A DNA stretch of 61,338 nt, counting the filler, from Hausera hauseri (Eukaryota), in the NCBI GenBank assembly GCA_046269625.1. It is 9 parts of 9 records of this genome, joined end to end, with 100 filler letters (N's around TTAATTAATTAA, not from the genome) between each part and the next. Parts side by side here need not be neighbours in the genome. Positions count along the whole stretch, not along the records: positions 50,048 to 55,804 come from JBJURY010193749.1; 8 more parts are not named here. One strand, 5' to 3'. The notes under the pieces were generated by a model, which saw only the letters and a program-made list of their open reading frames with translations, was not told where the DNA came from and ran no database searches. Numbering within the stretch: the first letter of the stretch is position 1; the number at the start of each line of letters is the position of its first letter. The translations under genes and the position numbers were made by a program. This document shows, piece after piece, positions 50,048 to 55,804 of this stretch.

Positions 50048-51508
50048 AATGGCATGACACTAAATTCATAGACGTCATCATGTGTCTTAAACGCCGTTTG
50101 TTATCTATCTTCGTCCTTGATTTCTACTTGCCAATATCTGGATTGTAAATCCAGAGTGGTAAACCATTTTGCTCCTGAGAGTCTGTCTAAAACCTCTTTT
50201 ACTGATGGTAATAGAAAAGAATCTTTCATCATAAGATTATTCAACGCCCTGTAGTCGTTGCAGAATCGATGTTTCGTAGTACCTTTCTTTCCAACCATAA
50301 GGATGGGTGAATACCAAGATTTATAATTGGGCCTAATTATATCGGCCTTAAGCATCCGTTCGACTTCCTTCGTTATCTCGGGTCTCAGTGAGTGAGGTGG
50401 AGGATACCATTTCTACATCTTTTGATTTTTGAGATTTATTTCTTCATTCGAACCGTGCTTTTTCTTGAGCGGAATAGTCAACTTAAATGCCTTTGCTCTA
50501 CCAATGTCTTCGTTGTCTCTGGCAACGATTGATTTATAGCGACACAACAGTTCATAAAATTGGTATTTCCTAGAGTGGTAGAAGCATAAAGTTTGACGGG
50601 GGTTGGTGCATTGTTTGCTATTCTGATCGGTACACGACCGGCGTGTACTCTTGTCAGTATGCTACTAAATATTATATTTGGATATATTGCCTCCTTTGGT
50701 TCGAAATATACTGATTGATCGTCATCATGTAGAATTTGCGCGAAAATTATTATCTCTGTTCTTGGTGGAATATTTTCATCTACTGGTATCCACACTTCTC
50801 GAAATTTTCTATCCTTAGCGTTTTTATGCTTTTATTCGGTCTGATTTCTACTAATTTTCCTGTTTGCAAGTCAATTGACATATTTGGTAGTCTTTTTAAT
50901 AGATCACATCCTAAAACTACGCCGTCAGTCAATTGTTCTATAACTTCAAATTCATGACGGAAAAACTGTCTAACTATTTGAACTTCTGGGTTCCATTTGA
51001 ACATAGGTTTTGACATTTGGCCAAAAGCTCCTGTACTTCCTGGATCCTTCGTAGATGGTGGGTACAACTGTCCTCTTAGCGTTTGAAGTATTGAATCATT
51101 TTTAATGTAAGACATTTTAGAACCTGTATCGATTAATGCATAAACTTCCCAGTCTTCAATAATGATTGTGACGAAGGGTCTTCCTTCTATTACTGTTCCA
51201 AAACAGTTTGATGTAGCTTTTGGGCGTTTAGTCGCCGATATTTTATGTCGGTTGATTCTGATTTCCGGGGGGATACTGTTTTCCGATAATCGTCTTAGTT
51301 CTCCGTTTGGATATAATTCATTGTTTTCGATGTTCAATTCTTCCGTTTCGTGAGTACTAATTAATGGTTCTCGATTGTTAATGTGTGGTTCTATATTTCG
51401 GAAGGTTTTTAACCTTAGATTTTCCCAGACAGGCGATCTAGTTTCTATATTCCGAGGTTCTCTCGGGGAATACAGTATTCTGAGGTCATCCATGGACGTC
51501 GATAACAC
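50048..51508 (-). pseudogene. pol: Gypsy-type pol 5' part: aspartic protease, spacer, RT N-half (different lineage)
   Basis: ALIDTGSKMSYI, VVLGCDLL, WYSPILMVGKK…RFCNDYRALN, FTTLDLQSRYWQV, (YEF).VMP at the contig end. Confidence 0.92.
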
Positions 51509-51819
51509 ATTTTCCGTAGGACTCCATAACGTTTCGTTCCTTCGTAGGGGTCTTCTAAACTAATTGTTCTCTTAGATTTCTGTCTGATGAGTTCATGGAT
51601 CGTTTGTCACAGTCTTCGTAGACTGGAGCAGTAGGGGTAGTATAGGCAATGGTGCTTTAATGACGGAATACGTCTTATATCTGTCTGATCTTGAAAGTAC
51701 TTCTCCTCCCTTTGGCTCCTCATTATCTGAATTATTTCGCGTATTAGGTTTTGTGAATTTTCACTTGTACAAGAACATAGGTTTCCTTTTTCCTTTACGA
51801 TTATGATAACCGACATGAC

Positions 51820-53680
51820 GTTCTACGTCAAATTTCCATCTATTTTCCTCGTATACTTTCAAGAACTTTCCAAAAGGCGTTATGATTGCAGTCAGTATTT
51901 TATATGAAAATCCGGTCAATGTAAATATTTCATACCCATTTATTACTGCTTGGATGACAGTTGTAATCATTTGTATTAGGAAATATATGGCTAAAAATCT
52001 AGATTCGGCTTGTCCAAAAATTACAAATCTTCCCCAAATTTTGTAGAGTATTTCTGTGGTTGCTCGCTGGTAATGGTTTACACCAAGCAATGATTCCCAT
52101 TTAGCTTGATATCGAGTATCATCTATTACTGAGGTCATGGCTCGATTTAATTCGTGTGTCTGCTGTCGCTGAAAAGCGATAAATTGTCTGAAGGCTTCAA
52201 TTTCCTTAGGCCTATACATGCCCTTTGATGAGGTATCTTGAAACTTATCGTCAGTAATTCCTTTTGCGAGATTTGTTCCTGTTAATTTATTTGGGGCGGT
52301 AGTAATACCTACATTTGGCATATTAACACAATCCGTTTCACTACGTCTAAAGATGGGTTCTTCTAATCTCGCTTTACAATCTTTAAGGATTGTTAGTTCA
52401 GTTGCATTGTGTAACAACACTCTAGTAAGCGGTGTGGCTAATCTTGGAGTATTCTGGTAAATAATGAGGAGTTCCTGCATGCAACGTTTTTCTTCGACGT
52501 TGATTGGTACGTCTCTTTTCTCACATTCATAAGTCAATAAGACTTCACAAGTAACTCGACCGAAAATTCCTTCTCATGAATTATTGGAGAGGCTAACTCA
52601 GGGTTAGCATAGATAAGAGCCAGCTTTGTCCTTATGATATCCGTATCCAGTTTACAATCATTAGTAACAATTTTGTCATATAATTCGGTTATTCCAACTT
52701 GTCCTTTGAAATAGAAGTAATCGTCTCGGTTTTTCAGGTAATCCTCAATCCAAATGTCCTCTGTTTCGAGCTTGTAAATTTTCGCATTTATTTCCGTTTC
52801 TGTGACGAAAAATGTTTCATAATTAGTGGCGAACATCACCACTTCGCAGTGCGAGATCATTTCTTTCTTAATAAATTTTAGTCCATACTGGTCGGGTATC
52901 AATATGGTAGGTGTAGGGTGTTCTGCTACATCCTTGCGTGTCCTTGAGTTGGTATTGGATTTATCTACATATTGTTTCCGGTAGTTTTGTTAAATTTCAA
53001 TTCCTTGATTTTGATAAAATTACAGTTTCTTTCAGAGGGAGGTTCCCATATTATGAGAGAACTTCTGAAAGCACAGGTTCCGTCTTGTAAATGGCATTTT
53101 TGTTTCTCGGTACATAGTTTGGTGACGCTATGGATCATTACTTTCTGTACTCGCATCTCCGATTCATAGAAATCTACGACCACTACGTTTGCTTCTAGTC
53201 CTTTTCCGGTGTCATACTCTGCTCCATTACAATATCCATTATGTATGTCTAGCCTTCCAACCACTACTTTATATGCCTTAATTATCTTTCCTGGTTGCAT
53301 CTCCAGTTCCATATTATCCCATTTTAATCTTCCGGTTTTCCTGTCCTGTTTACAGTGTTGGCGTTTTAAATTCGTTGGGATCGGAGGAGTTGTTGGCTTG
53401 ATTATTGAATAATGTCAGTGCATTAATGCACAATGAAAAACGCTACGAGAGCGTCTCAACATACATTCCAATCTGTCCAATGATATTAATTCTTGCTGTT
53501 GATATAGGAGGTAACTTGTCTTCCTCGTCTTCAATTTATGTGGTCTGACATCTTCACATACTTTTAAATCCATTAGAGAATATTTCTGTCCTAGTTTAAA
53601 CTTATCACAGTCATAGATGGTAACAGCACCTATATGCTTTATTAGCATCGTCAAAGTGAGTATGCTAATTAACCAATTGT
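51820..53680 (-). pseudogene. env: Chuvirus-type (class III-like) envelope glycoprotein
   Basis: Hydrophobic signal then IYDC…YSLMDLKVC…C..RRS..FHC; GYCNG.EY; C...DGTC…IIW…C; LY..I....C.L; C.QEL…PLTRVLL; C-terminal hydrophobic W..F..FG…INGYE segment. This is the cysteine scaffold of chuviral glycoproteins. Confidence 0.8.
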
Positions 53681-54349
53681 ATTCGTTTTTTCGGTTACTA
53701 TTATCTGTCGTTGTCAAATTACGTAACATATCTTCGAGTTTATTAATATTACCGGACCGTTTGCCTTCTTCCTTATCGAATGGTCTCGACCAGTTTACTT
53801 CGCAGGGTAATTTTCTCGCTGCTCTTCGCGCTAAGCTTGTAGCTCTAGTTATTTCATTTTCTCGATTAGGGTTTAGTTTGATAGCTGAGTACAATAATAC
53901 TTTTCTTAATGCTTCAATGGTATTTTCCACCATGATATTTTTGATCACCGATTCATCGGTTAAGTTACTTTTTGATAATTTAAAACGCGAACTACTCATC
54001 ATCTTAGCTGCATTGAATATCACTTTCTCTTTATCATCTAATGTGTCACCTCGAAGGCTTCAATAATTCGCTTAATTTTTGTCTGCGCTGAAGGTAGGGA
54101 TTGACATCTGTCGCAATCCTCTAATCAATTCTCCATTATAGTCAAGTTCTTTTCGTGTCTTCTTAGGTCTACCGACTGGGCGTTTCTGTTATGGGATGTC
54201 GGTTATTGTTTCACTCAGTGGCATTAAATTCTTATCGTATTGTTCCTTGTCTTTATCCGTTTGTAAGTACTCAAAATACATTGCAGCGTCTCGGACTCCC
54301 ATGATATGTCCCATTGTTCCGCCTTCGCCTTACGCGTGGCTTCTTCTTT

Positions 54350-54583
54350 AGTCTGTTCATTGGCTACTATCACCACAATTCGATTTGTTTCGTTGGGAAT
54401 AAATCCTACGTCTATTAGCTGTTCTAAATCGTCTAGTATTCTGCCTAGAAAATAGAATCTATAGTTTAACTCGTTTGTTCCACCGTTATTTATTAACCAT
54501 TCTCTTACGTCCCTTATATAGGAATAAGTAGTTAACTCGCATTCGTTTTTATCCATCCACTCGGATGATACCCTTATTTTCAT
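54350..54583 (-). CDS. Ubiquitin-like domain within the env-bearing element
   Basis: MKIRVSS…ECELT…IRDVREWL…YRFYFLGRILDD…LIDVGF…RIVVIV parallels ubiquitin MQIFVK…IENVKAKI…RLIFAGKQLED…LSDYNI…TLHLV. No GG. Confidence 0.7.
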
Positions 54584-54599
54584 CGTTTCTTCAGGTTTA

Positions 54600-55804
54600 G
54601 CCCTTAAGATTTTAGCATCTTTCCTTATCCAAGTTTTGGCACAGCGCTATAAATCGTGCTCTCACTGGATAATTTAGTCAAAGTAGGAATAAGTTGTCCA
54701 GGAGCATCTCCACATTGAATATACTGTTCTGAAGACACGTTTATATTTCATTTAGCTGTACTGGAGTCACAGGATTTTCGGCCGTTACTGCATCTAAGTA
54801 CACATCCCATTCCGGCTTATTTCCAACGCCTGGAAGTCCATAGTCTACTAGTGCTGTATTCTTCCTTTGTATATTCTCTCGAATTTCTTTCAGTCTCGGT
54901 TTTATTTCTTTAATCTGCATAGTTTGGAAACCTATTCCGTTTCCACAGGCGTATTGAATCATTTTCAGTAGTTCGCCTAATTCATTAGAATGGATGAATT
55001 CCTTTTGGTGATAATCAGTTAGTTTGATAATTACGTCTGTTAGCCATTTTTGTACAAATTCGCGCTTATTTTTGATTTCTGACTCGGTAAAAGCATATTT
55101 GTTACAAAATTTCGAGCTCTTTGGCTAATTCGTCTAACATTGTTGCTCTTTGTTTAGTTCTAATGCATGTTTCTTCAACATGTCTTATTTTAGGTATAAA
55201 TTGTCTCATCTTCTCATCACTAATCTCTGCCATTTCTGCTAAGAAAAAGGCTAACTCGTACATCTCATTAATGATTTTTGAGTCGGGATCTATTGCATGG
55301 AGCAATTTCTTTACGAACTTAAATTCTTTGAAACTAAGATGTTGGTCGTTTCTTATTTTTGTCAACTCGGTAAGGCAATTCTGATCTGTTCCGGCTATGC
55401 ATTCTTGTGGTTTATGTATGAATTTCATTGCTTCCTCTTAAGCTGTTCTATGCTCTGGTCAAATATCTAAGGTTTCCATATCTTGGATTGAAATTTCGTC
55501 GAAAGGTTTAGCTGTTAAATTTTGGACTCCTTCTAGTCGGACGTTTATTAATCTTGGGTAAAAATTACAAATCATATTCCGTTTTTCCGTAAAGTTTGTT
55601 TCTCCGATCATTTTATATATCTCTTCCAATATCGACACTTCTTGCTTCTTCTTCATAAAATTTAATTGTCGTAATGTTTCGAATTGAGTTCGGTTATCTA
55701 TTTCCGCTTGTATTATATCTAAGTTACGTGCACTTTCTTCTAATTGTTTCCTTATAGAAGGCTCGCTTTCTGGAAATTCTTTCCTACAGTCTCCCACTAA
55801 TTTA
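54600..55804 (-). pseudogene. Unidentified helical/charged ORF segments of the env-bearing element
   Basis: ORFs 55459-55797, 55102-55428 and 54741-54962 share the strand and composition of env/pol. No recognisable motif. Confidence 0.45.

Follow-up and report, generated by a model that had tools for sequence, protein, structure and literature searches.

Positions 50048-55804 (JBJURY010193749.1) of the Hausera hauseri DNA analysed here (GCA_046269625.1) hold part of a Ty3/gypsy retroelement in which a viral-type envelope gene (env) lies ahead of the protease (PR) and reverse transcriptase (RT). We regard this contig as the dead middle part of a high-copy element of the kind known from planarians as Burro, and put the probability that it belongs to that lineage and worked by the mechanism proposed below at about 85%. 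Judging from its domains and their order, it is most likely a distant representative of the env-before-pol elements already published, rather than a novel way of becoming infectious. This reading draws directly on the domain order, the folds, the decay of the copy, the many diverged copies and the single open reading frames (ORFs) found in relatives.

The window (1-61338, the whole stretch of 61,338 nucleotides, nt) consists of nine short contigs with artificial N runs and TTAATTAATTAA spacers between them, and contigs on either side of a linker are not neighbours in the genome. The element under study is one entire contig, read on the minus strand. All frames were translated, and 11 ORFs of the contig were run against Pfam, with env, RVP or RVT_1 matches in six. 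The minus-strand order is helical ORFs, a ubiquitin-like (Ubl) domain, a signal-like stretch, a fusion glycoprotein with its transmembrane segment (TM), PR, a domain that is likely dUTPase-like, and the beginning of RT, with the following features:

54744..55803, minus strand: three broken helical ORFs (55803-55462, 55437-55105, 55124-54744), an accessory region between gag (off the contig) and the Ubl (ORF map)
54368..54747, minus strand: three-helix plus ubiquitin-like module, with a frameshift near 54640 (profile from relatives)
54075..54188, minus strand: short basic GRP motif (sequence)
53760..54059, minus strand: helical-looking stretch where Burro and four relatives have a Bcl-2-like domain (position; putative)
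53620..53675, minus strand: predicted internal signal sequence of env (Kyte-Doolittle peak 1.85, directly ahead of the PF24664 match)
51764..53620, minus strand: class III (gB / mono-chuvirus-type) env glycoprotein in four pieces (PF24664, tree, hydropathy)
51560..51763, minus strand: env-PR linker of 204 nt, one frame on both sides, four stop codons (ORF map)
50888..51184, minus strand: retroviral aspartic protease, DTG at about 51130, within ORF 51559-50783 (Pfam RVP, E 1.4e-4)
50532..50795, minus strand: likely dUTPase-like domain between PR and RT (alignment with seven relatives; weak evidence)
50048..50412, minus strand: Ty3/gypsy RT, N-terminal part, with a stop near 50102 (Pfam RVT_1, E 2.9e-6)

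Pfam, hydropathy and the Ubl profile confirm the order given in a preliminary description of this DNA (helical ORF, Ubl, signal peptide with glycoprotein and TM, linker, PR, RT), and the succession of PF24664, RVP and RVT_1 bears out its assignment to a gypsy-type element with env before pol. The same description placed no long terminal repeat (LTR) and no gag between env and PR, which also holds: the longest direct repeat in the contig is 31 nt at 71%, no LTR-sized repeat was found in it, and the Pfam scan matched no gag family in the ORF between env and PR. The coding path is interrupted at at least 11 junctions by stops and frameshifts, and the contig is a decayed copy, unable to make products itself. 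It lacks the intact GAG, POL and ENV ORFs by which intact errantiviruses are recognised, and is a remnant.

Four consecutive, collinear minus-strand ORFs matched PF24664 (Monjiviricetes fusion glycoprotein) over profile positions 5-88, 105-227, 262-359 and 371-601 of 653, with E values of 1.4e-5, 4.7e-4, 1.6e-7 and 8e-25, respectively. The breaks between them are an in-frame stop at 53417-53415 and frameshifts near 52980 and 52555. The last env ORF spans 52573-51764, and a hydrophobic peak past the ectodomain marks the transmembrane segment at about 52010-51920.

With this last, C-terminal piece as query, a full HMMER scan returned 146 relatives at E up to 0.001, of which 21 (the best and the longest) were put through Pfam; a word-index search found no longer relatives of the piece among 719 candidates. 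The env tree has 75 rows (seven of 82 were dropped for short matches), drawn from a chosen subset of the 146 relatives and later finds, and is rooted at its midpoint; its label "envPR" follows a motif rule, by which P0028 is probably mislabelled. Two starred clades, one of 20 rows (99/94) and one of 27 rows (100/98), enclose the window env and consist mostly of env-PR proteins. Stand-alone glycoproteins, among them one named chuvirus G (P0029), are separated from it by a starred branch and fall outside the env-PR clades. The term "chuvirus-like", used for this env in the preliminary description, is thus right at the level of the family (PF24664), but the sequence groups with env-PR polyproteins and not with the named Chuviridae glycoprotein. 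A Chuviridae endogenous viral element was considered and rejected, as env groups in this way and PR and RT adjoin it. P0052 (1000 amino acids, aa) has immunoglobulin domains fused ahead of a Monjiviricetes-type glycoprotein.

The nearest relatives of the C-terminal env piece are long single ORFs. A Pfam protease follows env within one ORF in seven of the nine best, and three of these seven continue into RT; of the remaining two, one terminates at the env transmembrane region, and the other carries just a DTG motif after env. Neither RT nor integrase (IN) was found ahead of env in any of the nine. When the search was restricted to proteins of 1444-4598 aa, a range that favours polyproteins, it returned 12 proteins (the query among them), each of which has env and protease; nine also have RT. 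A CCHC knuckle stands ahead of env in 12 of the 24 polyproteins examined, and P0155 shows the Burro order of gag, CCHC, Ubl, Bcl-2-like, env, PR and RT. At the DNA level, locus L001 holds a 2693-aa gag-env-PR-RT-IN ORF. Related loci were absent from the viral contigs and the prokaryote genome contigs scanned, and one was present in metagenome contigs (23 of 64 parts scanned), its 9 kb containing no LTR-sized repeat.

Several features of these relatives deserve mention in their own right. P0001 (HBK71150.1) is a 2627-aa CCHC-Ubl-env-PR-RT-RH-IN polyprotein (RH, RNase H) recorded under a Flavobacteriaceae metagenome-assembled genome as a hypothetical protein, and is likely animal DNA binned with bacteria. 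P0009, P0147, P0153, P0156 and P0157 have three to six protease-like DTG motifs per polyprotein, some of them downstream of integrase. In P0001, P0005, P0147, P0150, P0153-P0156, P0159, P0160 and L001 (ORF 440-8521), the same ORF continues past integrase into a tail in which we recognised by eye a hydrophobic signal-like stretch, a domain without a listed family and a likely transmembrane segment; this tail is possibly a second membrane protein.

The env ORF (52573-51764) and the PR ORF (51559-50783) are in a common frame, as first described, but they are 204 nt apart, not about 250, and the earlier ORF positions 52537 and 51508 are replaced by those given here. Between the membrane-proximal motif of env and the first PR active site lie 301 codons in the contig and 148-391 in 20 of 21 relatives.

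To survey other copies we used one public run, which holds 36% of the sampled words and is possibly the source sample itself; no RNA data set was listed for the sequence, and this has no bearing on expression. Among its 15.5 million contig records, 18,416 fit contig 50048-55804 at 80% likeness (709 at no less than 99%, 2,401 at 95-99%, 6,798 at 90-95% and 8,508 below 90%). They cover all 30 of 30 bins of the contig, and their depth does not drop out at the env-PR junction. Because the run holds so many diverged copies, the element family is old and abundant. Four of the eight pieces shown overlap over 50996-51702, a stretch reaching from the PR site to within about 60 nt of the env stop, with 47-89 differences each from the window sequence. 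A check for copies across 51500-51800 therefore came out in part: diverged pieces reach 51702, but no listed piece covers the entire junction. As far as short contigs can show, the env-before-PR layout is common to the diverged copies.

These data bear on the possibility, named at the outset, that the junction is a misassembly or a unique deletion between two successive gag-pol-env elements that fused env of the first to pol of the second. Such an artefact would be in keeping with a short contig from a fragmented, repeat-rich assembly whose junction no listed piece spans, and two env relatives do have the ordinary layout, with integrase before env in P0124 and DUF5641 before env in P0045. However, pieces that each carry 47-89 differences from the window sequence overlap one another over 50996-51702, depth is maintained at the junction, and the closest relatives, which come from unrelated assemblies, show the same order and spacing; P0124 and P0045 are distant (ranks 124 and 45) and fall outside the clade of the window env. 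We consider this explanation already largely refuted and highly improbable.

A second alternative, which overlaps with membership in the lineage, has env and pol encoded in distinct ORFs and connected through frameshifting, readthrough or splicing. The env stop and the three further stops before the PR ORF would fit this, and such an arrangement is possible in elements of this kind, as the ENV-POL search of Chary and Hayashi (2026, PMC13524379) tolerated gaps up to 2000 nt. Stops in this poorly conserved linker are nevertheless expected from decay, since the copy has at least 11 breaks, and the relatives have env and PR in one ORF at similar spacing. We therefore think separate ORFs unlikely. 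The single polyprotein suggested in the preliminary description is supported as the likely ancestral state by intact relatives that carry env-PR in one ORF, and by analogy with them the active form likely made one Gag-accessory-Env-Pol polyprotein.

Upstream of env lies the Ubl module. A profile built from four relatives matches six further relatives and the window ORF (E 3e-4); against a profile of the 10 relatives only, the Ubl ORF (54646-54227) scores 29.0 bits, a value reached by none of 500 shuffles. The beta-grasp part lies at about 54585-54360, and the PDB matches of the profile are nearly all ubiquitin-family chains. A structure model of the module of relative P0157 is a beta-grasp (pLDDT 90.5, pTM 0.84) that superposes on ISG15, ubiquitin and SUMO domains with VIA Z of about 12 and a root-mean-square deviation of 1.6-1.8 A (Foldseek E 8e-5). 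Atlas matches of the window Ubl ORF, a lead only, are unnamed clusters at 0.90-0.92, with ubiquitin families below 0.9. On these profiles and this model, the Ubl call of the preliminary description is correct. Because the C-terminal GG is absent, the module is more likely a protein-binding module than a conjugated tag. We also observed that it occurs twice in P0150, P0155 and P0157, with the second copy downstream of integrase in P0157.

Between the Ubl module and env lies the GRP motif (54075..54188), which we take to be AT-hook-like; visual inspection showed similar motifs ahead of env in P0003, P0005, P0009, P0147, P0153, P0154 and P0157. Just ahead of the env signal sequence, P0002, P0007, P0016 and P0155 have in common a helical domain with BH1/BH2-like motifs, recovered in leave-one-out comparisons with none of 300 shuffles as high for each. 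All 60 PDB matches listed for the P0007 domain are Bcl-xL or Bcl-2 (best E 0.01); the P0016 domain has no Bcl-2 match in the PDB, the P0002 domain gave nothing useful in the Atlas, and the single-sequence model of P0007 (pLDDT 33) is unusable as a fold test. By its motifs and position, this domain appears to fit the BCL2-like motif published for Burro. The corresponding stretch of the contig lacks the GGW motif, and a profile that includes it found no Bcl-2 match.

The three helical ORFs at the upstream end had no significant Pfam match. The third is similar to a unit of which the accessory tail of P0147, one of the relatives, has two copies, and scores 8.5 bits against the entire region and 15.6 bits against two units picked by hand after the likeness had been seen (0 of 500 shuffles each); the first two are without resemblance to this unit. 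That the three might be repeats of one another was rejected, as 37-184 of 300 shuffles scored as high.

Downstream of env, the RVP match passes the curated cut-off, and the PR-RT spacer can be aligned across eight sequences (the contig and seven relatives). The RT fragment, cut off by the contig end ahead of the YxDD motif, is 39-50% identical to 15 env-PR relatives versus 33-37% to three other gypsy pieces of the window. These results speak to a further alternative, a separate lineage with the same gene order that gained a chuvirus-type env before pol apart from Burro. The long branch of the window env and its best identity of 30% would allow it, as would a host whose phylum the gene matches do not place. 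Against it, the helical and Ubl module (0 of 500 shuffles) and the PR-RT spacer are common to the contig and the env-PR clade, RT is closest to env-PR relatives among the sequences compared, and starred support in the tree places env inside that clade. Because Ubl module, spacer, RT and env nesting all agree, a separate origin would need convergence of every one of them, and we judge it decidedly improbable.

Membership in a Burro-like lineage also agrees with what is published. As described by Arkhipova and Yushenova (2019, PMC6431247), planarian Burro/GYPSM1 (going back to work by Jurka, 2007, and by Grohme et al., 2018, cited there) are giant gypsy-like LTR retrotransposons with a single 4,873-aa ORF. 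This ORF has Gag with CCHC knuckles, a Ubi2/SUMO-like motif before BCL2, an env between BCL2 and PR that matches mononegavirus fusion glycoproteins, and a dUTPase-like domain between PR and RT; the ubiquitin-like domain was originally noted through profile search, and Dugesia japonica has decayed Burro fragments with stops and frameshifts (PMC6431247). The contig has three marks of such elements, namely an env homologous to mononegavirus-type fusion glycoproteins (best E 8e-25), a ubiquitin/SUMO-like domain upstream of it, and PR and RT directly downstream. Burro and the contig are alike in the order Ubi/SUMO-like, mononegavirus-like env, PR, dUTPase-like (in the contig a likely one) and RT, in high copy number, in decayed fragments and in env before pol (in Burro, between gag and pol). 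Unlike Burro, the contig has no detectable Bcl-2-like domain and no MATH, BIR or ankyrin match, and it has helical ORFs without a known family ahead of its Ubl. The proposal of a new, independent route to infectivity is thus not supported, since this layout, including the upstream Ubl, was already published for Burro/GYPSM1 in 2019.

The premise that env always lies 3' of pol in such elements is likewise outdated by PMC6431247 and PMC13524379. Chary and Hayashi (2026, eLife, PMC13524379), who cover intact elements only, describe elements of GAG-ENV-POL order that carry a gB-type env and occur, without forming one clade, in flatworms, nematodes and bryozoans, and an ENV-GAG-POL order in two mites; their "ancient errantiviruses" with an HSV/gB-type ENV (HSV, herpes simplex virus) include Schmidtea mediterranea errantivirus 1-6 (Platyhelminthes C1a). 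The words ubiquitin, Bcl and polyprotein have no occurrence each in the main text of that study. The Schmidtea errantiviruses and the contig share env before pol, a class III env related to the chuviral glycoprotein, and multiple copies. In six Schmidtea env rows of the eLife supplement, the YQE, TPT/TTP and TNY motifs and their spacing are, by eye, as in our relatives, with the window env looser; the ten bryozoan rows and one nematode row compared look unlike it. The endogenous retroviruses of nematodes known as NERVs (Sacco et al., 2022, J Gen Virol, as cited in PMC13524379) have env before pro-pol in a metavirus. In this placement the NERVs and the contig are alike. The NERVs reportedly have a "continuous gag-env-pro-pol ORF". 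Mosquito BEL/Pao elements are reported to have a Chuviridae-derived glycoprotein (Dezordi et al., 2020, PMC7642597); their env, Chuviridae G and the window env all belong to PF24664, but the BEL/Pao RT is of a different superfamily.

Several points weigh against our interpretation. The contig is without gag, integrase and LTRs, and RNase H likewise lies beyond its ends. With four stops between env and PR (counting env's own) and other copies that have linker indels, the common frame alone proves nothing, and none of the pieces listed (8 of 18,585; 15 of 160 joints) covers the entire junction; the single run behind the copy survey may be the source sample. The window env is about 30% identical to its best relatives and sits on a long branch (1.72), with its exact placement flagged as unsure. 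The link to Burro and Schmidtea is one of domain order and motifs seen by eye, and the searches for relatives returned no named Burro or Schmidtea sequence. The stretch at 53760..54059 scores just 1.8 bits against the four-relative Bcl-2-like profile, with 70 of 500 shuffles as high. For the spacer, the profile has a single PDB match up to E 10, to a dUTPase at E 0.75, and the Herpes_ORF11 dUTPase family is matched by just one of the eight profile members (E 0.008).

Drawing on general retroviral and class III glycoprotein biology, we propose how an intact Burro-like element of this kind may have worked. Gag and LTRs would lie past the contig ends, and LTR-driven genomic RNA would be translated as one ORF. 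Gag and the accessory domains would remain cytosolic, while the internal signal sequence would direct the Env ectodomain into the endoplasmic reticulum, where signal peptidase would free its N-terminus. The Env transmembrane segment would bring the chain back to the cytosol, leaving PR-dUTPase-RT-RH-IN membrane-tethered at first, until released by the element's own protease. Enveloped particles with the gB-type fusogen could then fuse with neighbouring (germline or stem) cells. Infectivity itself is beyond the reach of contig 50048-55804 because the copy is dead and partial.

Elsewhere in the window, on another contig, 12896-13400 (minus strand) holds a decayed fragment of a DNAH5-type outer-arm axonemal dynein (match 12896-13354, E 7e-32). 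Its identity to sequences from many animal phyla is about 46-65% across half or more of the fragment, and none of the 120 matches listed is close. To our knowledge, nematodes have no motile cilia. This fragment disfavours a nematode host, and if the contigs come from one organism the host is probably not a nematode. A flatworm host would fit the AT-rich flanks and the env likeness, which do not by themselves show it.

The remaining contigs carry other repeats and genes. Decayed copies of another gypsy family, 60-89% alike, lie at 1-1900, 8465-12000, 17300-20800, 25585-28500, 33064-43327 and 46800-48900; gag-like, protease, RT, RNase H and integrase pieces were recognised in them by eye, and no env was noticed. 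Broken pieces of a protein-primed family B DNA polymerase (PF03175 on one ORF) at 29610-31988 (plus strand) are presumably a Polinton/Maverick-type remnant. At 20979-24303 (minus strand) there are several medium-sized ORFs that look like host genes, one of them matching MIB/HERC2 weakly, and one further window ORF had no useful PDB match.

The contig confirms, from a separate and rarely sequenced animal, that the env-before-pol arrangement is inherited stably rather than produced by an accident of assembly. The ubiquitin-like domain, which profile search had revealed in Burro, also gains support at the level of structure. We suggest only tentatively, and with more doubt than confidence, that the host is not a planarian and that this element, together with the unnamed polyproteins of 2,700-4,800 aa from metagenomes and other assemblies, represents a wider and old Burro-type enveloped lineage. 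If so, the range of Burro would extend from the Dugesiidae to other animal groups, and within one ORF the members of the lineage would shuffle several parts: the Ubl module, the Bcl-2-like domain, additional proteases and a second membrane protein located after integrase. The breadth of this clade and its accessory domains would be of interest to specialists, should the hosts prove to lie outside the planarians.

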